From the IMG/VR virus record IMGVR_UViG_3300027798_000023: 64,000 nt of DNA; one strand, written 5' to 3'. Each line of letters starts with the position of its first letter. Position 1 is the stretch's first letter. This document shows, piece after piece, positions 136-59,018 of this stretch. Both the position numbers and the translations under genes were made by a program. The stretch is from an uncultured virus (IMG/VR IMGVR_UViG_3300027798_000023) (lineage: Duplodnaviria; Heunggongvirae; Uroviricota; Caudoviricetes). The notes beneath the pieces are model-generated. The model was not told the DNA's origin. It searched no databases and saw only the letters and a list, made by a program, of their open reading frames with translations.

Positions 136-176
136 CGACCTGTTCGATTTAATTTAACCAACCAACCAACCGAACC

Positions 177-560
177 ATGAACATGGAACATTTACTAGCA
201 GCAACCAACAAAGTGGTTGAACTTAATAACCAACTAACCGCAGTCACCGAGCAGCGGGACGGATTGCACGAGTTGCACAACAAGAACGCAGCCAGATCCA
301 AAGAACTATTAGAGCTTTGTGGTACGCTACGAAAGCAGCGGGACAGACTGGCGGAGGCTTTGAAAAAAGCAGCACCCATTGTATCAAGATACCCGTCTGG
401 CTGGGATTTCAGCCATGATGAATTAGATGAAGCTGATGACGAAATAACCGAAGCACTCCAATCCCTAAACCAATCAAAACCAGAATCAAAAGACCCACAT
501 CGTTTTTGTCGAGGTGGCGGAGGTAACAACTTCCATTGCGGGTGCAAGTATGATGGCTAA
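177..560 (+). CDS. small coiled-coil phage protein, EQRD..LAEAL/TEALQSLNQ family
   Basis: ATG after (AACC)n leader; shares DNA blocks with ORFs at 580, 62913 and 63434. Confidence 0.75.
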   Translation: MNMEHLLAATNKVVELNNQLTAVTEQRDGLHELHNKNAARSKELLELCGTLRKQRDRLAEALKKAAPIVSRYPSGWDFSHDELDEADDEITEALQSLNQSKPESKDPHRFCRGGGGNNFHCGCKYDG

Positions 561-39010: not shown

Positions 39011-39226
39011 TTAGCCTGCGGATACGGTCAAAACACCGGAGTTAAGCCAAAGCGCACCAGCGGATGCTGGGTTAGATGTGGGAAGATTCCCTACAGCTTT
39101 TTGTAGAAGGACTCCTACAGCGATGGTTTTTGGGGTTTTGGCGTCTCCTTTTGAGATAACCAGTTTGTCGTTCGTGTTGTTGACCGTTGTGGTGGTCTGG
39201 ATAATTTTGAGATCTTCAAGTTGCAT
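39011..39226 (-). CDS. small capsid decoration/fibre protein
   Basis: Immediately after MCP; LPTSNPASAGALWLNSGVLTVSAG. Confidence 0.7.
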   Translation of the reverse strand: MQLEDLKIIQTTTTVNNTNDKLVISKGDAKTPKTIAVGVLLQKAVGNLPTSNPASAGALWLNSGVLTVSAG

Positions 39227-39256
39227 AGTGATATTCCTTTACTTTGGTTAAGGTTG

Positions 39257-39285
39257 AACGGGCGCAGGGGTTTCCTACGCCCGTT
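39257..39285. terminator. hairpin between MCP and decoration gene (attenuator or terminator)
   Basis: AACGGGCG...CGCCCGTT stem. Confidence 0.55.
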
Positions 39286-39290
39286 TTTAA

Positions 39291-40625
39291 TTATGCCGCT
39301 GGAACAACAGAAGTGCGTTTGAAAACGATAGCCGTTCCGAAACGAGTTTTGATGCGTTTTGAAGCAGCTGCCAAGACACCACGGAAGAATCCGATGGTTC
39401 CGTCTGGGTTAGTAGCCTCATTGGCAATGTTCTTCCATTTGAACTCACCAGTGTAGGACACGGGGTCGAACTTAACTGGACCTGCACCGCTAAGTGGGGA
39501 CGGAATCAAGCACTCCATCACGTCAGCGTGAAGGACATACGCGATTTCGTAATCAGCGGTATCGTAGGAATTGTTGGTGGTAAGGATGCCGTTGGTCATC
39601 GTCTCAGGATAAACGCGGGTCATTGCACCAGAGGTGATCGTTCCACGAGGGGAAAGATCATCGCACAGGTGGTAGTAACCACGGAACGAGCTATCAACAC
39701 CAAGAGGTTTGATGAGTTCGCTGACTTTACCTGCGTTCTTACGGATGTCTTCGCGGTAGCCGTCTTCTTGTTTAAGGAAGAGAGATGCTTGCGAGGAGAT
39801 GACAAGTCCGAATACTGCGGTTCCGTCTTCCATGCCGTATGCGTTGGTCTTGCCACCTTCGCGAAGGAGACGGAGACGAACACGGTCGAGGACTGCGTTG
39901 GAGATGTGGGCAGTTGGGGTGTAGTCAACATCCGATCCGCTTGAGACGAAGTCGTTGTTGAAGTCCACGTTCCAAGAGTTGACACCTTCAAAGAGCGTTC
40001 CTGCGGATACGTCGATGACTTGGAGGATTGGGGTTCCGGATGCAAGGCAAGGAACGAGGTTGGCGCAAGAAGCGTCATACTCGTCACGGTTACGCTCTTC
40101 CCAGCTGCGGCGGACTGCTTCTTTCATCAGCTCGACGATTGCGGTAAGTTGTTGCAAACCTTCAACCGAGTGGCGGAGATCCTCAACGTCGATACGTGGG
40201 GACTCAATCACTGCACGTTGCAGGTTGAACTGTTTGATGGAGCGTTGGAAGTGGAGGTATGCCTTTGCGTCCTGTGGTCCGAGGTTGGTTTCAGCAGCAC
40301 CCGTGAAGCTCTGTCCAAGGGAATTGGTGAACGCGTCGGAACCAAGAGCTACGCCGAGGTTAGTCCAAGGGAGACCGAGGGTCGATTGATCCGCACCGGA
40401 GTTAGAACCGGAGTTCGGAAGAACGCGGTCATAGATCAGGGTGGATTGTTTGTAGCCCATTCCGCCTTGGAATACGCCTTTGCGAATAAGGTCATACCAC
40501 GGGCCTGTGTGAAGGGCGTGTTTGTGGATGTCCTTGCCGATACGACCTGCCTCTTGAGTGAGCCAAGTGTCGATGTTTACTGTGCCGTCACCGCCTTGGG
40601 TGAACAGATGTGCTGTGGTACTCAT
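39291..40625 (-). CDS. major capsid protein
   Basis: 444 aa after portal and scaffold; long structured leader; followed by hairpin and decoration gene. Confidence 0.8.
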   Translation of the reverse strand: MSTTAHLFTQGGDGTVNIDTWLTQEAGRIGKDIHKHALHTGPWYDLIRKGVFQGGMGYKQSTLIYDRVLPNSGSNSGADQSTLGLPWTNLGVALGSDAFTNSLGQSFTGAAETNLGPQDAKAYLHFQRSIKQFNLQRAVIESPRIDVEDLRHSVEGLQQLTAIVELMKEAVRRSWEERNRDEYDASCANLVPCLASGTPILQVIDVSAGTLFEGVNSWNVDFNNDFVSSGSDVDYTPTAHISNAVLDRVRLRLLREGGKTNAYGMEDGTAVFGLVISSQASLFLKQEDGYREDIRKNAGKVSELIKPLGVDSSFRGYYHLCDDLSPRGTITSGAMTRVYPETMTNGILTTNNSYDTADYEIAYVLHADVMECLIPSPLSGAGPVKFDPVSYTGEFKWKNIANEATNPDGTIGFFRGVLAAASKRIKTRFGTAIVFKRTSVVPAA

Positions 40626-40800
40626 ATTATTGGTATGTTATTGGGGTTGGATTGGAGGTTGAGTTGTGCCTAATAGGCTTTCTACTCACCGAAGAGCAAA
40701 CGGTGAATTTGTGCTAGGCTAGAACCTAGACGTTGCGCTCTTTGTTTCCGATCCGACTATACATACGCTACAATGCCACGAGGGAGGCTGGGGTCGGGTC
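40626..40800 (-). ncRNA. structured 5' leader of the major capsid gene
   Basis: Several stems plus loop pseudoknot AAGAGC/GCUCUU; A/C-rich unstructured tract before ATG. Confidence 0.5.
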
Positions 40801-40908
40801 GTTGATTGATTTGAAATAATCATAAACGCTGATTCATTGCAACACTAAAATGTATTTATTTTCGCGACAAACAAATCACGAAATAAATATCGCATGTTAG
40901 TTGATTAC

Positions 40909-40985
40909 AAAAAAACCCCTGTCCAGCAAAAACTGGACAGGGGAACATGACAATGAATAAACAAAACTCCCACTCAGGAGGTGGG
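40909..40985 (-). ncRNA. candidate small RNA 1 (about 75 nt)
   Basis: Own TTGACA-17-TAAGTA promoter (41016-40988), 5' hairpin, U-rich seed, 11-bp terminator with U7. Confidence 0.6.
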
Positions 40986-41017
40986 CATACTTACAACACG
41001 CAAGTATCGCTGTCAAT

Positions 41018-41051
41018 AAAAACCCTCGATATTTTTTAGGTATCGAGGGTT
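41018..41051 (-). terminator. intrinsic terminator after scaffold gene
   Basis: CCCTCGATA/TATCGAGGG stem plus U-tract on minus strand. Confidence 0.8.
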
Positions 41052-41088
41052 AGTTTACAGGTAGCGAATCTGCGGTGTCCCCCAGCGT

Positions 41089-42291
41089 TTAGCTGAAGGC
41101 TTTTCTATAGCGATCAAGAAGACCATCGTCATCATCGCCGCTATCTGGGCTTCCCATATCTCTTCCGATACGTGGGGTTTGCTTACGGTATTTGGCAAGG
41201 TCGTCACTGAGATCTTCAACTTGACGCATCAATGACGCGTTTGATTTGATGATCTTAGGCAGAAGTTGCGCTGCGATTTGACTGTATGCTTTGTTTGGTA
41301 CGTCCAACGAGTCAAAGTTTGTCTCACGGACATTCGATACTAGATCGTCAAAATTGACTCCTTCGATTGTTTTGATGAACGGTAGTTTGGTCGTAATGTG
41401 TTTTGCCACTTTATCTACAGTCGATTTACGTTCTTCGGCTGAACGCAATACTTGCTCTTGCATGCTACGTTCTTTAGTGGCTTCAAGTTCTGCCAATGCT
41501 TTATCTGCATTTGAAAGCAGTTCAGCTTTCCTTGCTTTAAGCGGCTGGAGTTCTTTTGCCAGTGCTCGAATCTCGACGTGGTCTTCGGGATCAATATCGA
41601 GACCGCTCGTGATATTCTTAAATGCTTTACGCCGATCTGTTTCGTTTTCGATTTCAATGGCATCTGCAAGTTCATCGCGGTCAATACCATATCGGTCGGC
41701 AATCTCGTCGGAACGCTCGATAATACTAATAAGAGGTTTTTGAATCGCTTCCTTGTATGCTTCGCTTTCCTGCAAATTCGTTACAGTAATCTTAGCTTCG
41801 TAAGTTTTGATTTTTTCCTCAAGCTCGCTGGCTCTTGCTGCTGCTGCTTCAATTTCTTGCAGCTTGGCTTCAAGTTGCGAACGCGCTTGACGCTCAGATT
41901 CAAGATCCGTTTTAAGACCACTGGTCTCTTTGCGCATCTCAGCAAACCTACGATGTTGAGGAGATCCTTTATCGTATGGATTCTCTTTATCGCTTTCTTC
42001 GTCGCGTTCTTCAGGCTCTTCGTCTTCCTCATCAATGGGAAGTTTAAGCTCTGTATCGTCTTCGATAGCTTCATTAAGCTCGTGAAGCGGATCTTTATCC
42101 TCGCTTTTTTCGCTTTGTGATGACGTATCCTCAGATTCGGACTCGGACATACTGCCCTCGTTCGCTGGCATACTTCCTTGTGGTGCTTCTTCGGTTCGGA
42201 GAAACGCTTGAAAACTATCAACAAATGATTGATCGTTTTGTGGTTCGGCTGATTCTTGTTCTGACATATCTTCTGTATCTTCGGGTTTCAT
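41089..42291 (-). CDS. capsid scaffolding protein
   Basis: Acidic disordered N-terminus, long coiled coil, between portal and MCP. Confidence 0.75.
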   Translation of the reverse strand: MKPEDTEDMSEQESAEPQNDQSFVDSFQAFLRTEEAPQGSMPANEGSMSESESEDTSSQSEKSEDKDPLHELNEAIEDDTELKLPIDEEDEEPEERDEESDKENPYDKGSPQHRRFAEMRKETSGLKTDLESERQARSQLEAKLQEIEAAAARASELEEKIKTYEAKITVTNLQESEAYKEAIQKPLISIIERSDEIADRYGIDRDELADAIEIENETDRRKAFKNITSGLDIDPEDHVEIRALAKELQPLKARKAELLSNADKALAELEATKERSMQEQVLRSAEERKSTVDKVAKHITTKLPFIKTIEGVNFDDLVSNVRETNFDSLDVPNKAYSQIAAQLLPKIIKSNASLMRQVEDLSDDLAKYRKQTPRIGRDMGSPDSGDDDDGLLDRYRKAFS

Positions 42292-42605
42292 TGGTTAGTG
42301 AGATGATCCCAACCTTCTGTAGTTGGGATTTGTTCATGGATCTTGGTGAGGTTTTGCAGACGCTCGTATACGCTTGATGTTGACGCATGATACGCTGCTT
42401 TACGGATTACAATGAGATCGGGTAAAGAATCCAGTTGCTCAGGTCGCAAACGGTCTTGCTCTTGAAGAAAGTTCATTGCTGAAATAAACGCAGGCTCACG
42501 AAGAATGTTTTTCAACGTCTCTCGTGTTACTGGGTTTGTGATAAACCGTGTTAGTGGTTCTGGTGCAAGTGCGTGACGTGGTAGTGTTTCAGGTTGTTCT
42601 GACAT
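42288..42605 (-). CDS. small protein between portal and scaffold
   Basis: Operon position, ATGA overlap. Confidence 0.7.
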   Translation of the reverse strand: MSEQPETLPRHALAPEPLTRFITNPVTRETLKNILREPAFISAMNFLQEQDRLRPEQLDSLPDLIVIRKAAYHASTSSVYERLQNLTKIHEQIPTTEGWDHLTNQ

Positions 42606-42625
42606 GGTTATATGGTTTGGGTGAA

Positions 42626-44890
42626 TTAAAATGAAGGCATCGAAAGACTTTTCTGAGCCATCATTGCGCCCTTGGCATCGTTCAAAGCAAGAGCCTGTTG
42701 GGACTTAGCTTGAAGTTCGGATAGCTTGAGATTACCAATCTGAATAACCAGATCACGTTTGAACTGAGCCGTCTCTAGTTTGATCTGCTCAATCTGACGT
42801 TTTGTGTCTTCCTGACTAGCTGCGTCTTGCGGTGCGCCTTCAGGGGCTGCTGCTCCTTCGCGTTGCTGCGATCTAATCGAACGCTCAAAGTTGTCAACAA
42901 TCTGCGTAAGGTTGTTAAGCCCTTCTTTAACCATGCCGTAGACAGACCGCTGTGTTGGGTCTTTGGCAAGCGGATCAGCGTGTAGCGACAAATGGCTAAG
43001 CATTTCACGAAGACCCGGCAGGGATTGAATCGGATCAATCTCACCGCGTTCGATGCCTTCGATAGTCTGTTGTAATGGAGCAATGTGAATCTGGGCGTGA
43101 GTAGCGTGCAGCTCTTGCGGATTAACACCAATCGGATTGCCTTGCATAAGCAGAATGTTTTCCATCTCTGCCACTTTGGCTTCGACGTTGACCCTGTTAT
43201 CTTCAGGTTCAGCTGCGTAATAGCTGGCGTTTTGATAGCCAACCGTGTCTGCAACAACTTGATGGATCAGACGTTTTTGACCAATTTCATCAAGGTTTGG
43301 CAGAAGCTGGATAAGACGTCCAAGACCAACGGTTCTGAACGATGGGTTGCCCGCACCGATTGCACGCGTGGCGTAAGTGCTGTCGTGGTCGATTGCCTTA
43401 ATAGCTTCTTTCGGCACTTGGCGTTTTTCAACACGACGATAGAACTCAGCTATCAATGGATCGGATGACCTGTCGCCTTCAATAATGCGACGAACCATTT
43501 CGCGGACCAAACGATCCCATGATGCGTAAAAGAGATCGACACTTGCTGAGTCTCCGCCTGCAGCTTCTTCCATCTGGGCTTCTGACTGAAGTCTGTTTTG
43601 GTATACGTCACTCTTACTTCCGCCGCCTACGGCAAAGTGGCTTCCGCTTTCTGCCATGCGGTCTTTGACCTCGCTAAGAACAGGCATCGAGGATGTAGCC
43701 AAGTTGGGGAACGCTTTTTCGACTACCTCAACGCCCGGCGACAGGATCATAAACGGACCAAAAGACTGCATTGCAAGATCGTCCAATGCCTTTTGGCTAT
43801 TGGGTTGGATCATCAATGAGCCTGAAAGCATTGCCGAGTCAGAGAGCATACACATCAGCCTGTTGTGAAGCTGAACAAGCGGATAGAGAATATGACCCAA
43901 ACCACGGATACCGTGGAATGTGCCGTTGCCTATGCCGTAGCAAAAGAACACAAACGCTTCGTTGACCGTCTTGTATCTCGATGGCTGGGAGCAAAGGATC
44001 TTGCCGTCGCCGTCTTTCTCAAGCATGTAAAAAGAAAGAGTGCCGTCAAACTCGCGAACGATTGCACGAAGGATACGAACGTATTGATACTTGCGGTTGA
44101 ACACCGAGTCGTTGTTTTTAATCTCCCTTTGCATCGACTCATACTCACCTGTCTCGCCAGTTGACGCCCTATCGGTAGCTCGATTGATCGCTTTCTTGAC
44201 AGCTTCTACATCCCATCCGAGATCTGCTGCTTTTTCAGGGTCTTCGATCATGTCATACAATTCAGTGACTGGCATGTCCTGTTTGGAAATAGCAATTTGA
44301 ATTTTTTCTTCGGACGCAGGGGTCTGCCGTGGGATCATAAAATCACCAAAACCAGCGACCTCGTATCTCCAATCTTGAGTGTCTGGGAAATAGCCAATGC
44401 CCACACCGTGTGTCACAAACTTATCAACAAGCTGCATAAAATGACTGGCAAAAGATGGCCACTTGCGAATTGTGCGAGTAAGCTCCTCAGCGATAATCCG
44501 GTTATGGTTAAAGCGTTCAGCTTCTTCACCGTATTCGGTCTCAATAGACATCAAGGTTTTAACTGAAAAAATAATATCGTTAAACCCATTCGCAATCTTT
44601 GAAATAATCTTAGACCCTTGCAAGAAGTTGGCGTTTGCTCTTGACGATTGCTTCTGAATACGAAGTGCGCCGGGGCTATAGGGTGGTTCGCCATCCTTCA
44701 TGCCTTGAACCCGAACACGAGCAGTCGCGCTGGCTTCGTCGTCCTCAATCATCTTGTTGTAGATACCACGTATCGTACCTGCTGACGCAGCACGGTTCTT
44801 TGGTGCTTTGCCTTTTTCGTCAAGAAGAGCAAGCTCTGATCCAATTTGGTCGATCTCGTCAAGACCTGCGGGTTTTTTAATGTCGGACAT
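42626..44890 (-). CDS. portal protein
   Basis: 754 aa; size, helical pattern and position in the head module. Confidence 0.75.
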   Translation of the reverse strand: MSDIKKPAGLDEIDQIGSELALLDEKGKAPKNRAASAGTIRGIYNKMIEDDEASATARVRVQGMKDGEPPYSPGALRIQKQSSRANANFLQGSKIISKIANGFNDIIFSVKTLMSIETEYGEEAERFNHNRIIAEELTRTIRKWPSFASHFMQLVDKFVTHGVGIGYFPDTQDWRYEVAGFGDFMIPRQTPASEEKIQIAISKQDMPVTELYDMIEDPEKAADLGWDVEAVKKAINRATDRASTGETGEYESMQREIKNNDSVFNRKYQYVRILRAIVREFDGTLSFYMLEKDGDGKILCSQPSRYKTVNEAFVFFCYGIGNGTFHGIRGLGHILYPLVQLHNRLMCMLSDSAMLSGSLMIQPNSQKALDDLAMQSFGPFMILSPGVEVVEKAFPNLATSSMPVLSEVKDRMAESGSHFAVGGGSKSDVYQNRLQSEAQMEEAAGGDSASVDLFYASWDRLVREMVRRIIEGDRSSDPLIAEFYRRVEKRQVPKEAIKAIDHDSTYATRAIGAGNPSFRTVGLGRLIQLLPNLDEIGQKRLIHQVVADTVGYQNASYYAAEPEDNRVNVEAKVAEMENILLMQGNPIGVNPQELHATHAQIHIAPLQQTIEGIERGEIDPIQSLPGLREMLSHLSLHADPLAKDPTQRSVYGMVKEGLNNLTQIVDNFERSIRSQQREGAAAPEGAPQDAASQEDTKRQIEQIKLETAQFKRDLVIQIGNLKLSELQAKSQQALALNDAKGAMMAQKSLSMPSF

Positions 44891-44915
44891 GGAGGTAGTT
44901 GGTGGGTGGTTTTAG

Positions 44916-45668
44916 TTAGCCTTCGATCTGCATATTAACGGCTTCTTTGTCGAGGTCAATCGTTCTTGCTTTCTTTGGCTTTGAGTTTGCTTCAATCATT
45001 TTGGTCGGATTAAAGCCAAGGACATTGACATCCACACCTAAGCGTTGGACTCCTTCTTTGACCTTGAGGTTCATATTAAGGGCTTCTCTGGCTATATCAA
45101 TGACAAGTTTTATATCACGCCAGTTATCGAGCATTGGAGGGTCAGTGAACGCCTCTTTGAGCTGTTTAAGCGCAATAGCTGCGGACAGACTGGCAGTAAC
45201 TTCTTGAATCGTTTCTGCTTTTTGAGCGGTTTGCTCGATGTATTTAAGTTGCCTATCAACGCAAGCAAGAACGCCGCCGAATGCTGCAAGTTCTTCTGGC
45301 GAATGTGACTTTGGTGCTGGGGTGGTAAGCTCATACCCCACGTCAATAAACGTAAGCTGAACATCAGTGAGTTCACGGTAGGATTTTGGGGTGTTAAGTC
45401 GGGTATTGATTTCCCCACCTGACTTGTCGCGAACCGCATTTTTGCCGACATTCAAGCAATTATTGACCGATTCGTCGAGTTCGGCATCCGTCATGGTGCG
45501 TCGGCTTTTAACCCCTCCAACTGATACCCATGCGGTAATAGTTGCGGGTTTTATCTTTAAAAGCTCCGATAAATCAGGGATTCCTATGCCTTCGTTTGCC
45601 ACTGCATCAAGCACCGCTTTGATTATCTCTGGCGGATAGGCTGAACTTGAAGATCTTTTTGCTGGCAT
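44916..45668 (-). CDS. N-terminal HTH protein, possible terminase small subunit
   Basis: YPPEII...IPDLSELLKIKPATITAWV HTH; adjacent to TerL and portal. Confidence 0.55.
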   Translation of the reverse strand: MPAKRSSSSAYPPEIIKAVLDAVANEGIGIPDLSELLKIKPATITAWVSVGGVKSRRTMTDAELDESVNNCLNVGKNAVRDKSGGEINTRLNTPKSYRELTDVQLTFIDVGYELTTPAPKSHSPEELAAFGGVLACVDRQLKYIEQTAQKAETIQEVTASLSAAIALKQLKEAFTDPPMLDNWRDIKLVIDIAREALNMNLKVKEGVQRLGVDVNVLGFNPTKMIEANSKPKKARTIDLDKEAVNMQIEG

Positions 45669-45749
45669 CTGCGAATGAATGTGCATACATTACGCCAAGA
45701 CTGCAAGACAAAAAACGTAAATTTGTTTTAGGTCTAACTTACGTGTATT

Positions 45750-47594
45750 ATGCGAACCCCTATATCCACCAAATACGAACCCAAAGAAATCGACGGTGGA
45801 GGACAGCGCGTTGCTGGCGTTGACCTCCCTCCATGCTCAAAAGAGACTGCGTTGCTGTGGGGTTTCCGTTGGTCAGATGATCCTGATGCCAAGGAGTATT
45901 ATTTTTGGAGGGTCGCTGACATCTGGTGGAACTCCAACGGTCGTCTAAAGATGGCTAAACACCATTGGTCTGAGCTTCTTGTACGCGAATGCTGTCGCAA
46001 CAAATACCTTGCAATCGGTGGTGCAGCATCTTCGGGTAAGAGTTATGTGCTTGCCGCGTGGGCTTTGATGAGCTGGATGTGCGACCCTGCAAACACAAAA
46101 GTTCTTTTGACATCTACTCACCTTGCGGGTGCGCGTGACCGTATTTGGGGTGCTGTGTTGCAGCTTATCGACGACATCCCTGAGCCGCCTTGTCGGATTG
46201 TTGACTCTATAGGTCTGATCGCATATTTCGATGCGGCCAAACAGAAGTCGTATTCAACTTACGGACTCAAACTTGTGTCGGCTGACAAGAAACAAGGCAA
46301 GCGTAAGATCGGTAAGATGATCGGTGGTAAAGCCCCAAGGGTTATTTTGGTAGCTGACGAGCTTGGTGAGATCTCTGAGTCGGTGCAGGAAGCCGCGTCG
46401 TCCAACCTTGCAACTAACCCCCACTTCCAAATGGTGGGTCTATCCAACCCCGCGAGTAAATACGACCCGTTTGGTATCTTCTGCACGCCCAAAGGCGGGT
46501 GGGACGTTGTGGACATCATTAACGACATGGGGTGGGAGCTTCAGATCGGCGGTCGCTACGTCAGGCTCGACGCTTTGGACTCACCTAACTTCTGTTTGAG
46601 TGACGACGAAGGTGAGGGGTATCCCTATCTTCCATCGCAACGGACGATTGACGAGGCTCTTGACTCGCTTGGTGCTACTCACGAGGAGGCTGCCAAATCA
46701 TCTGGTTTCCTACGGATGTTTCGAGCGGTCTTTAACGACTCTGACAGCGGTGAAACGGTGTACTCGGTCTCTGAGATCACCAAGGCTGGGGCAGTTACCC
46801 TGCGCGAATTGACATCTACGGATACTCTTGCAGGTCTTGACCCCTCGTTCTCGTCCAATGGTGATGCCACGGTTCTCAAATTTGGTTACTTAGGCTACGA
46901 TACGCTGGGTCAACATTGTTTGAAGTTCGGTGAATCCGTCAGAATCTACGAAGACGTGACAAACAAGGTCGAACCACGCAACGTACAGATCGCCAAAAAG
47001 GTAATTGAAGAGTGTAAGAAGCGAGGGGTTAAGCCCGATAACCTGTCGGTGGACGCCACGGGTGCAGGTGGCCCGTTCTGCGACATTCTGCAGCTGATGT
47101 GGGAGAGCAACAATTTCCTGCGTGTGCAGTTTGGTGGTGCTGCCTCTGAGAAAAAAATCAAGAACGACTCCAAAGTGGTATGCAAAGACCGTTACCACAA
47201 TCGTGCAACAGAGCTGTTCTTCATCGGCAAACAGTTTCTCCTTGGCAAGCAGCTTATCGGACTGTCGTCGGACATGGTCAAGCAAATGACTTCGCGTATG
47301 TTCAAGACCCATAAGGGGGCGAAAGGACTACGTCTCCAAGTCGAACCTAAAGACGAGTATAAAGCCCGTATGGGTGAGTCTCCCGACGAAACGGACGCTT
47401 CGTTTATCCTAATCGAAAACGCACGTGAACGCCACTTTTTCATTCCGCAAGACCCTATTGCCGCAGACAAACTGGACAAGGTAGCCAATGACCCGTGGTC
47501 TCCTATCTCTTTGAGGTCGCTGAACAAAAGTAGCAGATCGTCAATTAACGACCTTGATGCTTCTGCTCTAGGGCATGAGCCTCACCTTGCTTAA
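45750..47594 (+). CDS. terL: terminase large subunit
   Basis: Walker A GAASSGKS, Walker B ILVADE, LSNP, RNase H-like GLDPSF..GD, VDATG, SPDETD. Confidence 0.9.
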   Translation: MRTPISTKYEPKEIDGGGQRVAGVDLPPCSKETALLWGFRWSDDPDAKEYYFWRVADIWWNSNGRLKMAKHHWSELLVRECCRNKYLAIGGAASSGKSYVLAAWALMSWMCDPANTKVLLTSTHLAGARDRIWGAVLQLIDDIPEPPCRIVDSIGLIAYFDAAKQKSYSTYGLKLVSADKKQGKRKIGKMIGGKAPRVILVADELGEISESVQEAASSNLATNPHFQMVGLSNPASKYDPFGIFCTPKGGWDVVDIINDMGWELQIGGRYVRLDALDSPNFCLSDDEGEGYPYLPSQRTIDEALDSLGATHEEAAKSSGFLRMFRAVFNDSDSGETVYSVSEITKAGAVTLRELTSTDTLAGLDPSFSSNGDATVLKFGYLGYDTLGQHCLKFGESVRIYEDVTNKVEPRNVQIAKKVIEECKKRGVKPDNLSVDATGAGGPFCDILQLMWESNNFLRVQFGGAASEKKIKNDSKVVCKDRYHNRATELFFIGKQFLLGKQLIGLSSDMVKQMTSRMFKTHKGAKGLRLQVEPKDEYKARMGESPDETDASFILIENARERHFFIPQDPIAADKLDKVANDPWSPISLRSLNKSSRSSINDLDASALGHEPHLA

Positions 47595-47595
47595 T

Positions 47596-47672
47596 GTCAA
47601 ACGGCTCTGGAGAATTAACCCCAGAGCCGCCGAACCATGATACACGGCGAGCTACTACTCTCACCGCAGAAC
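47596..47672 (-). ncRNA. candidate small RNA 2 (about 75 nt)
   Basis: TTGACA-16-TACTAT promoter (47706-47679), 5' hairpin, seed, 3' hairpin; G-U pairs form only on the minus strand. Confidence 0.55.
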
Positions 47673-47767
47673 ATCGACATAGTATACTATGCCAATGAGC
47701 TGTCAATTACTTAACGTGGTTATGTGCCTTTGCGCCAGTGTTTGACTCAGGATGTATGTGTGATTTG

Positions 47768-48810: not shown

Positions 48811-50250
48811 TTATCTCATTGCGTTTCTGCCTATCTCACGAGCACTTTCTCGATCCATCCGCATACTCATTTGTTGTTGAGGAGATTGTTGTTCAGTCCT
48901 GCGTTTCAGTTCCTCTTCCTCACGAGTTTTTTCTTTAGCTACTTGAGCATTCATTTGCTCTTGCGCTTTAGCTACTGCTTGGTCTTGCAAACCTTTTTCT
49001 TTTTCAGCGGCTTGACGTGTGTCCATTTGCTGAATCCGCGATTTCACATCCGATGCTTCTTGAGAGGTTTTTTGAAGACGCTCTTGCGCGGCTATGGTCG
49101 AAGAGTCTAACGGTGCAGCTTGGTCAGGCGTTGGTTTTAACTTCTGAGCTACATTGTATACCCCTTCTCCTATTACCGCTGGTGCGGTTAATGGGTTAAT
49201 CAATCCAAGTGTTCGTGCAGCTATGCCTCCAACCTGACCTGATCCTTCATTGCGAATCGCAGACATCTGCTCTCGATTTGCTATGTTCTGTTGAGCTTGG
49301 GCTATCTTCGCGCCACTTGCTTTTTGAGTATCAGCTAGTTCCTGTTTATTGATCTCTTGCTGCTTCCCTAGTTCTCCAAGTTTGATTGAACCCTCGATCT
49401 CCGCTATGCCAGCTTCTTTCCTGATGTTTGCTGTTCTAGCTGCATCAGCTGCGATCCGTTCGTCCTGACTCTTATTTAAGGCCAAGCGGTCCGCTTCCTT
49501 CTTTTCTCTTTCCATGCGGATGTCGGCTTGTTCCGGCATCTCAGTCTCGCGTGCTGCTTTCTCAAAATCGTTAAGGTAGCTGCCTGCCGTGCCCAGCTGT
49601 TGGTCGCCAAACACTTTATTTGTCTCCGCGTCCATTCCCCCCATTGGGCGAGTGCCACCCATTGGACGAGTGCCACCCATCGCTGGCTGTTGCATGCCAC
49701 CAGTCGCTGGCTTCTGAGCATTACCCATTGACGCTGACTCGGTATCGCCCATCGCTGGACGACGCTCTTTGGCAAGACGCGCTTGCGCAATGTCGTAGCC
49801 TTTGTCGTCTACTCCTAGCTTGGCAGCACGCTGGCGCAGTTCAGCAGCGTCGCCACCTTTCTTCATATCTTCAAAGAGTGCACGACGTTGAGCGATATTC
49901 TGTGCTCTGCTACCAAACGCTCCGGACAAGTTTAACTGCTCGCGTTTATCTGTTTCATTCTTTGCAAAGTTACGTGGCTGACCTACGTTATCATCGGTAC
50001 GAGGCTGACCTACGTTAGCACGCGCTACATCTGTAGCGGCTCTTTGAGCTGCCAAAAGTTTCTCGTAATCTTTTTTCTCCTGTTCAGGGTTGCGTATGTT
50101 GGACTTATCGCCGGGTTTACGCATGCCTTTATGGCCGGGTCGTGCCATCTCACGTGCGTATTCCTTGTCGAGTCTAGCCTGCTTCTTTCCGCCTCTCGGC
50201 GTACGGTAGTTACGCGAAGGGTCCTGATCGTATGAATCTGAAATAGCCAT
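48811..50250 (-). CDS. low-complexity putative internal virion protein
   Basis: 479 aa Q/A/E/K-rich; MGGTRP and NVGQPR repeats; one hydrophobic segment. Confidence 0.6.
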   Translation of the reverse strand: MAISDSYDQDPSRNYRTPRGGKKQARLDKEYAREMARPGHKGMRKPGDKSNIRNPEQEKKDYEKLLAAQRAATDVARANVGQPRTDDNVGQPRNFAKNETDKREQLNLSGAFGSRAQNIAQRRALFEDMKKGGDAAELRQRAAKLGVDDKGYDIAQARLAKERRPAMGDTESASMGNAQKPATGGMQQPAMGGTRPMGGTRPMGGMDAETNKVFGDQQLGTAGSYLNDFEKAARETEMPEQADIRMEREKKEADRLALNKSQDERIAADAARTANIRKEAGIAEIEGSIKLGELGKQQEINKQELADTQKASGAKIAQAQQNIANREQMSAIRNEGSGQVGGIAARTLGLINPLTAPAVIGEGVYNVAQKLKPTPDQAAPLDSSTIAAQERLQKTSQEASDVKSRIQQMDTRQAAEKEKGLQDQAVAKAQEQMNAQVAKEKTREEEELKRRTEQQSPQQQMSMRMDRESAREIGRNAMR

Positions 50251-50293
50251 GACGCGAGATTGGACTCTCTGTCAGCCTATGTCAACCTTCTTC

Positions 50294-52609: not shown

Positions 52610-52814
52610 AGGTGCTCCGGCTTAGGTGCTCCGGCTTAGGTGCTCCGGCTTAGGTGCTCCGGCTTAGGTGCTCCGGCTTAGGTGCTCCGGCTTAGGTGCT
52701 CCGGCTTAGGTGCTCCGGTGCTGGAGGTGCTCCGGTGCTGGAGGTGCTCCGGTGCTGGAGGTGCTCCGGTGCTGGAGGTGCTCCGGCTTAGGTGCTCCGG
52801 CTTAGGTGCTCCGG
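52610..52814. repeat. compound tandem array, 14 copies of core AGGTGCTCCGG
   Basis: 7 x 14-bp (core+CTT), 4 x 17-bp (core+TGCTGG), 2 x 14-bp, final bare core. Confidence 0.97.
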
Positions 52815-53926: not shown

Positions 53927-53985
53927 ATAATACTTCGAGGTTCAATCCCTCCAACTTCAACCCCACAACCCCACAACCCCAGACC

Positions 53986-54195
53986 ATGAAAACACTTCTC
54001 GAAAACCTCGCCAACCACAACGTCCTTATTCTGTCATCCCATGCCAACGTCCAAGGGAATTTAATCGCCCCAACTTTGCCCGCCCAACCTTGGAGCGTTC
54101 AACTTGGTACGCCGTCGTCAAATGCCGTTATCTGGTTTCAGCCCGAAGACGTCGCCAAAATTGAAAAAGATTCGATTATCAGCTTGAATTTCTAA
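53986..54195 (+). CDS. early hypothetical protein
   Basis: Leader repeat before ATG. Confidence 0.7.
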   Translation: MKTLLENLANHNVLILSSHANVQGNLIAPTLPAQPWSVQLGTPSSNAVIWFQPEDVAKIEKDSIISLNF

Positions 54196-54214
54196 CACCC
54201 CACAACCCCAGACC

Positions 54215-54610
54215 ATGAAAACAAAACGCCAACCCACAGCCGCACAGCGCGAAGCCGCCAAAGCACGCCGCGCCACTATGTCAACCCTAGCCGCTAGGGT
54301 CTCCGCCATGTCCGACGCCGAACGCGCCGCACTTGTCCCGCTTGGCATTGCCACGATCCAAGGGCGCACCCTCAGCATGCACAATTCCGCGTTAATCATT
54401 ATGCAACGCTCGACGGCGTCAATCGTTGGAGGTTTTGCCCAATGGCGCGAAGCCGGACGCGCGGTGCGTAAAGGTGAGAAAGCTCTTTCTTGCTGGTATC
54501 CATGCCAGACCAAGACCACCGACGCCGCAACCGGAAACCCGGAAACCCGCCCAGGCTTTCGCCTTGGTAGCGTGTTCGACATTTCCCAGACCGACGCAAT
54601 CCCGCTTTAA
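54215..54610 (+). CDS. ArdC-like N-terminal ssDNA-binding domain protein
   Basis: S..N..L...Q....VGGFAQW...GR.VRKGEKA...VFDISQT. Confidence 0.85.
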   Translation: MKTKRQPTAAQREAAKARRATMSTLAARVSAMSDAERAALVPLGIATIQGRTLSMHNSALIIMQRSTASIVGGFAQWREAGRAVRKGEKALSCWYPCQTKTTDAATGNPETRPGFRLGSVFDISQTDAIPL

Positions 54611-54632
54611 TCTCACCCCACAACCCCAGACC

Positions 54633-54878
54633 ATGACAACCACCTCACAACCCTGCAGCCGCGTATCCGTGCGCGAAATCATTTCAACGCCCAATTGGAC
54701 AGGCTTAACGCTTGCCCAGCTTGTGGACGCCGGACGCATTGACCCTACCGACGCGCCAACAATCACCCAATGGGTGAAAGCCACGCTTGGAGACCCTCGC
54801 ACCCTCGACGAGTTGCACAACCAACGCGCACTTGCCCAAGAAGTCATTTCAACCCTCACCCCACAACCCCACGCATGA
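54633..54878 (+). CDS. early hypothetical protein
   Basis: Leader repeat before ATG 54633. Confidence 0.65.
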   Translation: MTTTSQPCSRVSVREIISTPNWTGLTLAQLVDAGRIDPTDAPTITQWVKATLGDPRTLDELHNQRALAQEVISTLTPQPHA

Positions 54879-55051
54879 GACCCTATAACGAATATCTTGA
54901 AGCCGTCACCGCTTACATCCGGAAACACGGCGAAACCAACGAGACCATAGACCGCCTCGAAACCATGCTTCCCCCCGCTTGGTTTGCCGAGCTTGTCACC
55001 GAAGCCACCGAAGCCCTTAACCTCGAAACCCTCAGCACCTCCAACCCATGA
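54875..55051 (+). CDS. early hypothetical protein
   Basis: ATGA overlap; leader motif inside the previous gene end. Confidence 0.65.
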   Translation: MRPYNEYLEAVTAYIRKHGETNETIDRLETMLPPAWFAELVTEATEALNLETLSTSNP

Positions 55052-55167
55052 GAATCATTAAACCAATCCTTGGAACAATCGCCGCAATCGCGCTTATCGT
55101 CGCGCCTGCGTATTATGAAAACAAAATCGTGCCCATCATTGAGGCATTCATCCGCGCCCATTTCTAA
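55048..55167 (+). CDS. 39-aa membrane peptide
   Basis: MRIIKPILGTIAAIALIVAPAYYENKIVPIIEAFIRAHF; ATGA overlap. Confidence 0.55.
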   Translation: MRIIKPILGTIAAIALIVAPAYYENKIVPIIEAFIRAHF

Positions 55168-55198
55168 CCAACACCCCAACACCCCAACACCCCAAACC

Positions 55199-55456
55199 AT
55201 GAACAGCAAGACCCATTACACCGTCACCGTTGGAAATATCGGGACAGTTTACGAAGGAACATCCGGCAGAAAAGCCGCAGAGTGTTTTGACGAATACCGC
55301 GCCCAATCGCAAGACAACTACGGACGCGCCGCAGGTGAACCCGTCACGATATGGAAAGACGGCGAACCTTGGAGAGAACACGCCGGAGCAGATTTAGAAA
55401 CTTATGATTTTTATGGAGTAAATACCACCAACTCATTCAACACCTCGAAACCATAA
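55199..55456 (+). CDS. early hypothetical protein (VGNIGTVY..GRA.GE.V family)
   Basis: Leader repeat before ATG. Confidence 0.7.
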   Translation: MNSKTHYTVTVGNIGTVYEGTSGRKAAECFDEYRAQSQDNYGRAAGEPVTIWKDGEPWREHAGADLETYDFYGVNTTNSFNTSKP

Positions 55457-55493
55457 CCAACCAACACCCCACAACACCCCAACACCCCAAACC

Positions 55494-55706
55494 ATGACAA
55501 CCAAACAACCAAAGCCGTTTCAACAATCCGATAGCGAAACCAGCAAAAACGCAATCATTGCAAACTTTATCGCATGGAAAACCCACGGAGATTCCGGAGC
55601 GCGTGACAGATTCCGGTCTGCTTTGATGGGACGACTTGTAAAACGATTTGGAACGCGTCGAATCCGCCGCTTTTCCGACATCGTCGCCAAACTCTCCACC
55701 AAATAA
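55494..55706 (+). CDS. early basic hypothetical protein
   Basis: Leader repeat before ATG. Confidence 0.6.
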   Translation: MTTKQPKPFQQSDSETSKNAIIANFIAWKTHGDSGARDRFRSALMGRLVKRFGTRRIRRFSDIVAKLSTK

Positions 55707-55761
55707 CCAACACCCCAACACCCCAACACCCCAACACCCCAACACCCCAACACCCCAAACC

Positions 55762-56226
55762 ATGACAACCAAACCAACACCAAAGAAACTGACCAAAGCC
55801 GCCGCTCTCATCGCCGCGTCCGTAGACTATAAAAAATATGCACGCTCTGAAAAATACGCATGCGAACCGCTACGCATTGCCGAACGCTTAACGGAGTTTT
55901 GCAAAGCCACCGCCGAGGGGCGCATGTTTTGCATCATCCACAGCGTTTCCAGTTCCGGCATGACTCGCAACATGTCTTTTTATGAAACCGCCAAACTAAA
56001 CCACCCAATGATTGACGGGCGGAAATACTGCCAGCTAAATTTTTGGAGCTTATTTAAAGCCCTCGGATACCGTGAAGCAAAAGGTGACGGCTTCGCAATC
56101 GGCGGATGCGGGATGGATATGGTTTTCGCTACCCATTACAACATCATCCACAGCGCGGCGCGTTTTGGCATTATCACTAAAGAGCAATGCGCCAAGCTCT
56201 CACAAATGACCCCGCCTCATTTCTAA
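55762..56226 (+). CDS. early hypothetical protein (VSSSGM.R / GCGMDM.F family)
   Basis: Leader repeat; conserved-looking motifs. Confidence 0.75.
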   Translation: MTTKPTPKKLTKAAALIAASVDYKKYARSEKYACEPLRIAERLTEFCKATAEGRMFCIIHSVSSSGMTRNMSFYETAKLNHPMIDGRKYCQLNFWSLFKALGYREAKGDGFAIGGCGMDMVFATHYNIIHSAARFGIITKEQCAKLSQMTPPHF

Positions 56227-56238
56227 CCCACCCACAAA

Positions 56239-56295
56239 CCGCCTGACGAGTTCCCAGCTTACGGAACGAAACGCCGCACGGCGTCGCGGATAAGC
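56239..56295 (+). ncRNA. type I hammerhead ribozyme
   Basis: CCGC-CUGACGA-GUUCC[CAGCUUAC]GGAAC-GAAA-CGCC[GCAC]GGCG-UC-GCGG-AUAAGC; complete core; predicted cleavage after C56285. Confidence 0.93.
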
Positions 56296-56310
56296 AAACC
56301 ACCCGCAAAC

Positions 56311-56679
56311 ATGACAACCAACACCCCACAACCCCAGACCATGACAACCACCCCAACACCGGAGACCTTAGAAGAACTCTACAACCACCCCGACTTTCAA
56401 CCCTTCGGGAGCACCTCAGACGACTGGCTAAACGACGGCGAACGCATGGAGCGTTGCCAAGAAGCCGCCGAGCATGGCGCGGATGGGTCAACCCATTATG
56501 AAGTCATCCAAGACTGGCGGGATTTTCTCTCCAACCTATTCAGAGACCTGCGACGCCATGCCGAGACCGACGAGGAAGAGGCGAACATTGAACAACTTGA
56601 AAGCCAAATCTCCGGAGAGATTGACGCCTGCGAAGCCCACCACGAACAAGCCGGAACTTTACACGCAAGCCGTGCATAG
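56311..56679 (+). CDS. early acidic hypothetical protein
   Basis: Two in-frame starts (56311, 56341) from a duplicated leader. Confidence 0.7.
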   Translation: MTTNTPQPQTMTTTPTPETLEELYNHPDFQPFGSTSDDWLNDGERMERCQEAAEHGADGSTHYEVIQDWRDFLSNLFRDLRRHAETDEEEANIEQLESQISGEIDACEAHHEQAGTLHASRA

Positions 56680-56708
56680 ACCAACCAACCACCCCACAAC
56701 CCGCAAAC

Positions 56709-57176
56709 ATGACAACCACCCCACAACCCCAGACCATGACAACCACCCCACAACCCGCAAACATGACAACCACCCGCGCCCGCACCGTGCCCGTGCTATC
56801 TTATGAAAACCCTACCGCCGGAAGCGTGAAAGCCACCCGCAAGGAACTTCACAGGCTAGGCGTCACAGATGCCGAGATTGACGCCGGAGAGAAGCGTTTT
56901 GACATAGAAACACGCGGCGCATGGGGCGTATGCAGCAAACTACGCGCAGTTGTTAAAACCGGAGAGTTTGGAGAATATAGCCGCATGCTTTGGAGTCAAT
57001 TCTATTCAATGCGAACCATGAGCAAGCCAAACCAAACCGGAACTTGCATCGAGGGATACGTCAGTATCAGAGGGAAAAAATCCACCTGCTTCACCTCGTC
57101 CCAGTTGTTTGAATTACCCTGCGGCAAACTCGTAGACGTCGCGGTGATATTCTCACGTTCAAAGATCAAACGATAA
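56709..57176 (+). CDS. early hypothetical protein
   Basis: Three in-frame starts from a triplicated 27-bp leader unit. Confidence 0.7.
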   Translation: MTTTPQPQTMTTTPQPANMTTTRARTVPVLSYENPTAGSVKATRKELHRLGVTDAEIDAGEKRFDIETRGAWGVCSKLRAVVKTGEFGEYSRMLWSQFYSMRTMSKPNQTGTCIEGYVSIRGKKSTCFTSSQLFELPCGKLVDVAVIFSRSKIKR

Positions 57177-57226
57177 ACCAACCAACCAACCAACCAACCA
57201 ACCAACCAACCAACCACCCCAAAAAC

Positions 57227-58000
57227 ATGTATTCCGAAACCTTAGAACTAACTCGCGGCTATGTCGCGACCATTGCCAACGACGACAGCCCCGAAAATCC
57301 TTTCGACGCGTGGGACTGCCAACCTCCGATTGCCGTCCTCAACTGGGAACGCTACCACGCAAAACTGGAGAACTACAAAGGCGACGAACTAACCTTGCAC
57401 AATCTCCTTTCATACATCCCGACCGAGAAATGGACAAGCCGCGCAGGAAAGCGCGAGATTCTTGCCGCCCTACCTTTCCCGATGGAGGAAATCCGCGAAG
57501 AAATGCGCTGGGGAACATACAGCCCTTGCTTTAAAGACGCCATTGACTCGCTAGTCTATTCCCTTGCGCCTTCCGACTGGTCTGAATGGATTGAATACTT
57601 CGACGCCATGCAAGCCCTTGCCGCCATTGCCGGAATCCCTTGCCACCTCACCCAATCCAATGGATACAGCCAAGGAGACAGCGCGTTGGTCTTTACTGCC
57701 GCCCTTCCCGAATGGGTTGAGAGCATGAAGATTGACGCCGAACGCGCCAAGGGGATTTGTGAATCCGCCGCCGACCTGTGGAGCGCGTGGGCGTGGGGCG
57801 ACGTTTACGGAGTTTCCGAAATCATTTCACCCGATGGCGAGGAGGTTGACGACGCATCTTGCTGGGGATTCTACGGAGACCACAAGACAAGCGGACTGAT
57901 GGAGCATTGCGAGAGCGCGATAAACCATCATATCAAATACCTAGCCAAGGAGGCACAGGAATCGCACGCCGCCGCCTGCATGGACATAGCCACCGTATAA
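57227..58000 (+). CDS. early hypothetical protein (W..GDVYG / SCWGFYG family)
   Basis: (AACC)n leader; motifs recurrent in phage early proteins. Confidence 0.75.
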   Translation: MYSETLELTRGYVATIANDDSPENPFDAWDCQPPIAVLNWERYHAKLENYKGDELTLHNLLSYIPTEKWTSRAGKREILAALPFPMEEIREEMRWGTYSPCFKDAIDSLVYSLAPSDWSEWIEYFDAMQALAAIAGIPCHLTQSNGYSQGDSALVFTAALPEWVESMKIDAERAKGICESAADLWSAWAWGDVYGVSEIISPDGEEVDDASCWGFYGDHKTSGLMEHCESAINHHIKYLAKEAQESHAAACMDIATV

Positions 58001-58030
58001 CGGACGCGCAATCCGCCCGCCATTGAATCA

Positions 58031-58059
58031 CCTCACCGGAAAGATCCGGTGGGGTTTTT
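58031..58059 (+). terminator. intrinsic terminator in early region
   Basis: CCTCACCGGA-AAGA-TCCGGTGGGG-TTTTT. Confidence 0.85.
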
Positions 58060-58096
58060 GGGGCAAAAGGCAACGCCTTGAAACTACCAACCAACC

Positions 58097-58288
58097 ATGA
58101 CAACCAACACCCCACAACCCGTAAGCCTCCAACATATAGCGTTACTCGAAAGCACCATTGATACCGTTGCTTGTGAACTGCTCGATCATTTAACTCCCGA
58201 AACTGCTTCTTTGTGGGCAGCATTCAGCGATGCGATGCAAGCAGACCTTAAAGCAAAATTCGGAGACGACGTATTTTTAAACTTCTAA
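58097..58288 (+). CDS. hypothetical protein
   Basis: MTTNTPQP leader-derived N-terminus. Confidence 0.6.
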   Translation: MTTNTPQPVSLQHIALLESTIDTVACELLDHLTPETASLWAAFSDAMQADLKAKFGDDVFLNF

Positions 58289-58292
58289 TACC

Positions 58293-59018
58293 ATGAAAAC
58301 CAACCGACCAACCATGACAACCAACACCCCACAACCCGCAAACATGACAACCATCGAAACATATTGCCCCGTATTCACCGGATTCTATAACACCATCTGG
58401 GATGAATCAGATAATGTTATGCAATACGAATTGGACGACGAAGAAAATTTCCGAGAGAACTACCCAGAGCTTGCCATTGTCCCGTGGGAGTTCATTACAG
58501 ACAACGCATTGGACACGGTAGACTACCAAGCCGGAAGCCAAAGCGTTGCCGAACACGTCGCGGGAAACTTCGCATCATTCATTAAAAAGACCTTACAGAA
58601 AAAGTATTCCGACATGGTAAGCGATTCCCGTTACCAGAAACTTGTATCGCCACGGGAATACAATTTCAGAAACGACGCGATTGACATTCAGATTGATATA
58701 AACCTTGACCTATTGAGGGAATACCTATCCGAGAATCACGATGAGTTTGAAGACTATCTTTCACGCACTTATACATCGCGGAGCGGGTTTGCCTCGCACT
58801 ACCCTAACGACGTCGAGAGTTGGCGCGAAGATACCGAGAACTTCACCGAGCTTGACGGGCACTACCTAGGCTCAATCCTGCAGTTCATCGCGGAGAATGA
58901 AGACAGCGACTGCGAGCTTTCATTCTACCATCATTGCAACACCTTTGAGGAATACATGAACGCCGCATACATCCAAGGCGACAAACTGCTGCAAAAATGG
59001 ACGGATGCAAACGAGTAA
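58293..59018 (+). CDS. acidic hypothetical protein (F.GFY / SPREYNF..D family)
   Basis: Three in-frame starts; very acidic. Confidence 0.75.
   Translation: MKTNRPTMTTNTPQPANMTTIETYCPVFTGFYNTIWDESDNVMQYELDDEENFRENYPELAIVPWEFITDNALDTVDYQAGSQSVAEHVAGNFASFIKKTLQKKYSDMVSDSRYQKLVSPREYNFRNDAIDIQIDINLDLLREYLSENHDEFEDYLSRTYTSRSGFASHYPNDVESWREDTENFTELDGHYLGSILQFIAENEDSDCELSFYHHCNTFEEYMNAAYIQGDKLLQKWTDANE

Follow-up and report, generated by a model that had tools for sequence, protein, structure and literature searches.

Two minus-strand candidate small RNAs with linkers complementary to the start-codon context of early genes in an uncultured phage

Two small units in the structural and lysis block

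We analysed a stretch of 64,000 nucleotides (nt) from an uncultured virus of the Caudoviricetes (IMG/VR record IMGVR_UViG_3300027798_000023), hereafter the window, which represents a nearly complete phage genome, and focused on two short elements on its minus strand, unit 1 and unit 2, that are candidate genes for small RNAs. Small ORFan genes (53.7-63 kb and 0.2-3 kb) are found on the plus strand of the window, as are replication genes (primase, exonuclease, DNA polymerase, helicase) and a single open reading frame (ORF) of 5156 amino acids (aa; 3091-18561). The structural and lysis block is on the minus strand and extends between 52.5 and 28.9 kb, with the gene for the large terminase being inverted inside it (45750-47594, plus strand). 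Unit 1 lies between the gene for an acidic 400-aa protein and that for a 444-aa protein, the most conserved structural gene, and unit 2 is flanked by a 345-aa gene and by the terminase gene, whose end converges on it. Judged from position, composition and conservation, with no family match, the 400-aa gene probably encodes a scaffold and the 444-aa gene the major capsid protein; the 400-aa protein used as a query against the viral collection gave no match.

A first-pass annotation of this DNA had described two minus-strand units, each consisting of a promoter, a 5' hairpin, an unpaired seed and a terminator hairpin, and this anatomy was borne out by sequence and folding (Table 1). Unit 1 folds with -32.9 kcal/mol (z -5.45) and unit 2 with -39.4 kcal/mol (z -4.80), each being more stable than all of 200 shuffled sequences, and the linker of unit 1 has a mean unpaired probability of 0.94. 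In both units the distance from the -35 hexamer to TCATG is 66 nt. A promoter and a terminator for each unit stand only in part, as TTGACA is present in both, with the -10 element of unit 1 and the U-tail of unit 2 being weak. The promoter of unit 2 is the top promoter-like site in a consensus scan of the 36-55 kb region. The fuller linker sequence of unit 2 reads GUAUCAUGGUUC. Features typical of Hfq ligands are found in unit 1, which has a U7 tract and an AU-rich linker, and are absent from unit 2 with its tail GUUUGAC.

Table 1. Coordinates of the two units, of the preceding terminator and of the proposed target regions in the window
Feature	Position	Strand	Description
Unit 1, whole	41016-40909	-	promoter, hairpin, linker, terminator
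Unit 1, -35 element	41011..41016	-	TTGACA (ATTGACAGC, common to unit 2)
Unit 1, weak extended -10 element	40987..40995	-	TG-n-AAGTAT; 18-nt spacer; read from sequence
Unit 1, 5' hairpin	40969..40985	-	CCCAC-N7-GUGGG; 5 bp; folding
Unit 1, AU-rich unpaired linker	40944..40968	-	25 nt; ends in seed UUGUCAUGUU (40953-40944)
Unit 1, predicted intrinsic terminator	40909..40943	-	12-bp stem 40943-40916 with 8 GC pairs, then U7
Terminator of the upstream acidic 400-aa gene	41022..41050	-	directly before the unit-1 promoter
Unit 2, whole	47706-47596	-	promoter, 5' hairpin, linker, GC-rich hairpin, tail
Unit 2, -35 element	47701..47706	-	TTGACA; identical in all 5 homologues
Unit 2, -10 element	47679..47684	-	TACTAT; 16-nt spacer; 10/12 consensus positions
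Unit 2, 5' hairpin	47644..47667	-	GCGGUGAG / CUCGCCGU; folding; helix 1 of the alignment
Unit 2, seed/linker	47633..47640	-	UCAUGGUU; complement of AACC-AUG-A; identical in 5/5 homologues
Unit 2, GC-rich 3' hairpin and tail	47596..47631	-	hairpin 47631-47602, tail GUUUGAC; ends 2 nt from terminase stop
Best predicted unit-2 target, start of 127-aa ORF	166..183	+	CCGAACCAUGA; 11-nt perfect complement
Early-gene block, proposed targets	53951..58361	+	12 CA-rich leader/start modules (..CCCCAGACC-ATG-ACAACC.. / ..CCCGCAAAC-ATG-ACAACC..)

Conservation of unit 2 and relationship of unit 1

The clade of the window is small, consists of uncultured freshwater phages and was recovered by searches with the terminase and the capsid protein. 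It includes a fragment identical to the window (L005), relatives with a terminase identity of 74-84% (L006, L007, L008 and G001, the latter 24 kb in length) and a complete relative genome of 64,545 bp with terminal repeats (G002). A DNA search with both unit regions of the window against 50,697 deposited phage genomes gave no nucleotide match, and no relative of the window terminase was found in the bacterial/archaeal genome collection.

Using a motif-plus-hairpin scan we detected unit 2 in all five related phages in which the region is covered (window, L006, L007, G001 and G002). In the alignment of these five sequences TTGACA, the A and the last T of the -10 element (TAnnnT), and TCATGGTT are invariant, with both stems differing between the phages. 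The adjacent 345-aa protein is only 27-34% identical among the same phages, unit 2 thus being far better kept. A structure of two helices is supported by the alignment as 94.2% of the cells are paired, compared with 41-48% when the partners were slid, and 11 of the 21 pairs have changed on both sides. Helix 1, the 5' hairpin, has 84% of its cells paired and changes on both sides in five of its eight pairs, and helix 2, the 3' hairpin, has 100% of the cells of its 13 pairs paired, six of them having changed on both sides. Of five measures, four had observed values that none of 500 shuffles attained, and for the remaining one, further pair types, 41 of the 500 shuffles did so. Several G-U pairs of unit 2 are possible only in the minus-sense RNA, and the seed has a mean unpaired probability of 0.56-0.79 in four of the five phages. 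The expectation that the seeds would be conserved in related genomes thus held for unit 2, whose seed is present in 5/5 phages despite compensatory changes in the stems, and failed for unit 1 (0/4).

A covariance model of the five unit-2 members scores them with 91-106 bits, and nothing else in 1,102,701 bases of the relatives' loci scored above 19.8 bits. With default filters the model found no member in ~80 loci of distant marine relatives (~44% terminase identity), and a search of the viral collection for the pattern TTGACA-N50-64-TCATGGTTMGSSG returned seven loci, namely G001, G002 and five chance matches. Rfam 15, including FopS (RF04319), gave no match at the gathering score on either strand of the whole window. 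It is thus well supported by the sequence comparison that unit 2 is a selected element, which would found a new conserved family of phage small RNAs. Two further matches of the model in the window were rejected. The fourth-best, 101-247 (minus strand), is merely the antisense of a target start. The third-best, 39207-39292 (plus strand), is a conserved hairpin after the 444-aa gene, its 'promoter' being conserved coding sequence. This GC-rich hairpin (39259-39285), which directly follows the 444-aa gene and has no promoter, is kept in structure in four phages, carries an A-run on its upstream side in the window and in G002, and is probably a 3' stabiliser of the mRNA or a partial terminator.

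In four of the five phages the ORF upstream of unit 2 terminates within the -35 hexamer or immediately next to it; in the window its stop codon is 64 nt upstream. No terminator is located between the upstream ORF and unit 2, hence the upstream mRNA must end at the unit-2 hairpin as well, so that unit 2 would be an operon end and an independent small transcription unit at once. In this respect unit 2 resembles the 3'-end small RNAs of the DapZ/MicL type, which are transcribed from a promoter of their own where the preceding coding region ends, as the unit-2 promoter is situated at or in the upstream stop codon in 4/5 phages and the 3' hairpin would be shared with the upstream mRNA. DapZ and MicL, however, are enterobacterial, depend on Hfq and have long U-tails, whereas unit 2 has 3-4 U.

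The double use of the hairpin also raises the question whether the units are nothing but operon-boundary elements, with hairpins that would terminate the late mRNAs arriving from upstream, make them more stable and protect the convergent terminase gene, and with hexamers and seed that have no role in trans, the seed match being a by-product of a genome rich in AACCATGA. Apart from the shared mRNA end, the plain terminator that relatives have at the unit-1 site, the promoterless conserved hairpin after the 444-aa gene and the lack of enrichment in duplex energy described below all speak for this explanation. A pure terminator, however, leaves unexplained why TTGACA, a correctly spaced TAnnnT, an unpaired 8-mer and a 5' hairpin are maintained in five phages in spite of the divergence of their stems and of the flanking protein, the hexamer and the 8-mer even being invariant. 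Moreover, AACCATGA occurs just twice on the late (minus) strand, which is chance level, yet the complement of this sequence is found in the unit precisely where the linker is exposed. We regard a role restricted to operon boundaries as rather unlikely.

In three phages (window, L006 and G002) no more than 2 nt lie between the end of unit 2 and the stop codon of the terminase gene; in L007 and G001 another promoter, with TTGACG, and one or two additional genes intervene. The first arrangement, combined with the weak U-tail, might suggest control in cis, by read-through of the weak unit-2 hairpin producing RNA antisense to the terminase gene, or by complementary 3' ends as for OOP and cII of phage lambda. 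In the window there is no overlap with the terminase gene up to the tail of the hairpin, unit 2 is equally conserved in the two phages where it lies apart from that gene, and both the invariant linker and unit 1 would be left unexplained, making antisense control of the terminase gene quite improbable. The short promoter-to-terminator transcripts of lambda, OOP and the PR'-6S-tR' transcript, are positioned opposite the end of a convergent gene and in front of the late genes, respectively; in contrast, the position of unit 2 relative to the terminase gene is not conserved, and no co-directional gene follows it in three of the five phages.

As the conserved CAUG contains a start codon on either strand, we also considered that it marks a small protein gene, read in sense from the AUG of the seed or in antisense from AACC-ATG-A, which is a typical start context of this phage. 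The ORFs at this site comprise 7, 16, 40, 15 and 60 aa in sense and 25, 2, 12, 28 and 25 aa in antisense direction in the five phages and show no similarity; with neither set being conserved, small ORFs at the seed were ruled out, and we give this idea hardly any credence. A put-like antitermination RNA, a mimic of the initiator tRNA and pairing with the 3' end of 16S rRNA were also considered and dropped, as the sequence lends them no support.

Unit 1 has a different distribution. It is present in the identical fragment L005, and a strain that is ~98.5% identical (DNA runs X2/X3) has no difference among those listed for 40907-41157, a weak hint that unit 1 is kept there. At the position of unit 1 we found a single terminator in G001, L007 and L099 and a promoter-gene-terminator insert in G002. 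In the whole window unit 1 is the second-best match to the unit-2 model (24.3 bits, E ~9e-5 with filters off), above the five chance viral sequences with TTGACA and the exact seed at the right spacing, which reach at most 9.5 bits. It was missed with default filters, its 5' hairpin does not align to helix 1 and its seed is short of one G. These features suggest that unit 1 either diverged from a copy of unit 2 or acquired the same design by convergence. Additional promoter-gene-terminator cassettes are inserted at two hot spots in this clade. The first, which is where the window has unit 1, separates the scaffold-like from the capsid-like gene (G002; L086 1-700 / L003 1-760), and the second separates unit 2 from the terminase gene (L007 11843-12310; G001, L085 11840-12535).

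Unit 1 is on the same strand as the 444-aa gene and 283 nt upstream of it, an arrangement reminiscent of the promoter-proximal terminator gate formed by PR', 6S RNA and tR' in lambda, where a short abortive RNA is made until a phage antiterminator permits read-through into the late genes. Unit 2, however, faces the end of a convergent gene in three of the five phages, and a promoter-like site and a leader belonging to the 444-aa gene itself are conserved in all relatives, none of which carries unit 1. Coverage by metatranscriptome contigs (runs X15 and X18 of one study) is restricted to the 444-aa gene with its leader and to part of the 400-aa gene; these contigs stop at 40786/40787, the start of the conserved 444-aa leader block and thus short of unit 1, which is a weak hint only. 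A late gate of the lambda type was not recognisable at either unit, with no search being aimed at antiterminator genes, and we consider such a gate still less probable than antisense control of the terminase gene. The region before the 444-aa gene (40626-40842, minus strand) comprises a conserved promoter-like TTGCAA-N18-TATTTC and a leader of ~160 nt with CCTCGYGGCATTGTAGCGYATGTA ... TTCACCG-N-CGGTGAGT ... CTCCAATC, which is kept in four phages and, by eye, in a fifth (L099).

Seed matches at start codons

Start regions are strongly depleted of G throughout the genome and lack Shine-Dalgarno motifs. The stereotyped starts that had been noted for the early genes were confirmed, as a CA-rich leader of the form CACCCCACAACCCCAGACC-ATG-ACAACC is present in 12 copies. 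Tandem repeats with units of 8 nt (CCAACACC, up to 6.5 copies), 4 nt ((AACC)x10) and 27 nt run into the ATG or include it, and the 27-nt unit is repeated 3.3 times in frame, resulting in three successive ATGs at 56709, 56736 and 56763. The CA-rich early repeats are possibly a repeat-based translation enhancer. An early ORF of 131 aa (54215-54610, plus strand) contains an N-terminal ArdC (anti-restriction) domain (E = 8.4e-9).

The exact complement of the unit-2 linker, AACCATGA, is the first-ranking NNNN-ATG-N context in both complete genomes that were available for comparison (n=2), being found at 7 of 112 candidate ATGs in the window and at 5 of 111 in G002. It occurs 13 times on the plus strand and 2 times on the minus strand of the window, with ~1.3 copies per strand being estimated from base composition, and all 12 plus-strand copies other than the complement of unit 2 itself open an ORF of at least 45 aa. 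The seed of unit 1 is matched to another variant of the start region. The complement of its 10-mer, AACAUGACAA, is located at four early-gene starts and that of its 8-mer, CAUGACAA, at 11, and CATGACAA is present in 12 copies on the plus strand, corresponding to 11 ORF starts and the complement of unit 1 itself. G002, which is without unit 1, contains one copy only of CATGACAA.

Perfect 8-nt matches to the seed of unit 2 are present in 7 of 74 start regions of the window (shuffled mean 0.33; 3 of 2000 shuffles as high) and in 5 of 78 start regions of G002 for the unit 2 of that phage (4/2000 as high); the corresponding value for unit 1 in the window is 9/74 (8/2000 as high). Internal coding windows gave no perfect match at all (0/66 for unit 2 and 0/66 for unit 1 in the window, 0/61 in G002). 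The matches in the window are biased towards the early/middle strand, where they affect 7 of 42 genes as compared with 0 of 33 on the other strand (p = 0.016). The start at 177, that of the 127-aa ORF, is predicted to form the most stable duplex with unit 2 among the 74 start regions (-21.6 kcal/mol), and the starts at 580 and 26991 are the other best single targets. In G001 a gene ~400 nt downstream of unit 2 was found by eye to have a 12-nt perfect complement across its start.

Two observations outside the early-gene block concern the layout of the late strand and its border. At 50250-50290 (minus strand) TTGACA, a 17-nt spacer and CAATCT are followed after 6 nt by the ATG of a 479-aa gene, whose mRNA is possibly a leaderless late mRNA. 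At 52610-52814 a 14-nt unit (AGGTGCTCCGGCTT on the plus strand) is repeated 13.8 times; this array is located directly 3' of a 219-aa gene, adjoins the divergent early/late control region and encloses a run of a longer unit, which is 17 nt by eye and for which the repeat finder reports a period of 9. The array looks like iterons, i.e. an origin or a regulator-binding array.

Proposed role and comparison with known systems

According to our working model unit 2 would be the gene of a conserved small RNA of ~75-85 nt at the 3' end of a late-strand operon, made from its own sigma-70-type promoter and likely ending at the hairpin it has in common with the upstream mRNA, with a layout of 5' hairpin, short exposed UCAUGGUU and GC-rich 3' hairpin. 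The linker would pair with AACC-AUG-A, the commonest start context of the early and middle genes, which are devoid of Shine-Dalgarno sequences, and pairing would hide the start codon, lowering translation initiation on several mRNAs together. Unit 1 would be a further unit of this design, confined to the lineage of the window and possibly descended from a copy of unit 2; its seed UUGUCAUGUU fits the second start variant of the early leader repeats, (A)AAC-AUG-ACAA. Anatomy, conservation, compensatory changes and the match between seed and start context are the observations on which this model is built, and from them we infer transcription, the 3' end, pairing in vivo, repression and its timing. 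That one or two small RNAs cover the start codons of many Shine-Dalgarno-less early/middle mRNAs, reducing their translation, is consistent with the sequence statistics, and we assign it a probability of roughly 40%. The suggestion of the first-pass annotation that this might serve an early-to-late switch or the control of superinfection is speculative.

A number of results weigh against this model. The anticipated advantage of the seeds over shuffled controls was seen for perfect 8-nt matches and was not reproduced in terms of duplex energy, a crude test of plain duplexes: 35 of 74 starts in the window reach -9 kcal/mol or less with unit 2, as compared with 32.6 on average for shuffled seeds (81/200 as high), and there was no enrichment in G002 (54/200 as high), for unit 1 (11/200 as high) or over internal windows. 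Contiguous pairing between seed and target extends over just 8-11 nt, and folding of the L006 sequence predicts a paired seed (unpaired probability 0.01). The strand bias of the matches is not significant in G002 (4/35 vs 1/42, p = 0.17). Two genes with a AACCATGA start (848 and 26991) have orthologues in G002 that align from residue 1 and start in other contexts, and the invariance of the seed leaves no room for covariation with its targets. As for the units themselves, unit 1 is absent in all four relatives covering the region (G001, L007, L099 and G002) and its -10 element is below the threshold of the promoter consensus scan. The 3' hairpin of unit 2, being followed by only 3-4 U, is absent from the list of the terminator scan, so that the 3' end of the unit is uncertain. 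The 36-55 kb region shows no enrichment of promoter-like or of terminator-like matches taken as a class (14 vs 19.3 and 25 vs 21.7 expected, respectively), which is a weak point. None of the metatranscriptome contigs covers either unit, a neutral result given that an RNA of ~80 nt is usually missed. Finally, sigma-70-like promoters are present on both the early and the late strand, and late production of the RNA is not indicated for this reason.

The invariance of the seed deserves particular attention as it is also compatible with small RNAs that are real and have their main partner elsewhere, either in host mRNAs with the same start context (AACCAUGA) or in a protein or RNA chaperone, in which case the phage match would reflect a start context that host and phage use generally. 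All five phages have an identical seed, while few early genes of the window are related to those of G002, most of them lacking a counterpart there, and the two orthologues that can be compared do not keep the context; an invariant seed combined with variable phage targets fits a conserved host target better. A host partner is conjectural, however, as the bacterial/archaeal genome collection yielded no relative of the window terminase, and the co-occurrence of unit 1 with 11 copies of a phage-specific repeated start module points to phage targets. Overall, a main partner other than the phage early genes appears rather unlikely to us.

Repression by small RNAs that act close to start codons is established in Bacteroides thetaiotaomicron, a system lacking Shine-Dalgarno sequences, for FopS/GibS (PMC11697453), and this is the nearest established mechanism. 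Like the RNAs proposed here, FopS/GibS are short, with their own promoter and a terminator hairpin, and have an exposed seed that pairs next to or over the start codons of several mRNAs and blocks initiation (PMC11697453). In contrast, their seed is at the free 5' end, whereas it lies between two hairpins in our units, and their promoter is of the Bacteroides type, whereas ours is the sigma-70-like TTGACA-N16/17-TAnnnT. Furthermore, our units are phage-borne, their proposed targets are the phage's own early genes as predicted from sequence, and they have no match in Rfam. Based on these differences the units are not members of the FopS/GibS family.

In function the proposed RNA would be the counterpart of the RegA protein of phage T4. 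RegA, a protein of 122 aa, competes with ribosomes at the starts of ~30 early and middle mRNAs, its sites overlapping the AUG or lying directly 5' of it, according to a T4 review (PMC3014915). Common to both is the shut-off of multiple targets through a loosely shared start context (PMC3014915); the effector of T4 is a protein, whereas we propose an RNA whose function is deduced from sequence.

Short non-coding RNAs, some of them abundant late, are known from other phages, such as sRNA1/2 of PAK_P3 and RNA C/D of T4 (PMC4933390, PMC10914365, PMC3014915), and PreS of lambda is another phage small RNA (10.1101/2024.10.31.621285). PAK_P3 sRNA1/2 have no start sites of their own and are apparently processed pieces of 3' untranslated regions (PMC4933390, PMC10914365), and in the accessible portions of these sources no function is assigned to them or to T4 RNA C/D (PMC3014915, PMC4933390, PMC10914365). 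In the available parts of the respective reports none of these RNAs, PreS included, is described as mirroring the start-codon context of its own phage; PAK_P3 sRNA2 is reported to match the T-loops of tRNAs and not ribosome-binding sites. The T4 review states that no trans-acting regulatory RNA of T4 has been functionally characterised (PMC3014915). In the literature searched we found no phage RNA reported to mirror the start context of its phage's own genes.

A wider version of our model is a little more tentative than the model itself. In this virulent-type phage tiny RNAs of the late strand may act as a general brake on its own early genes by exploiting a standardised start context (AACC-AUG-A, AAC-AUG-ACAA) that stems from a repeated CA-rich leader, and leader repeats and seeds may co-evolve, as unit 1 is found only in the lineage that amplified the ..AAC-AUG-ACAA.. 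module. The family of unit 2 is small and cleanly defined, with five members, compensatory changes and an invariant seed, which makes the proposed mechanism directly testable with reporters, and a known function is rare among the small RNAs of lytic phages. If the model is true, phages of hosts that do not rely on Shine-Dalgarno pairing would control whole classes of genes by an RNA with 8-10 nt directed against the start codon, which would represent a compact and transferable translational off-switch.

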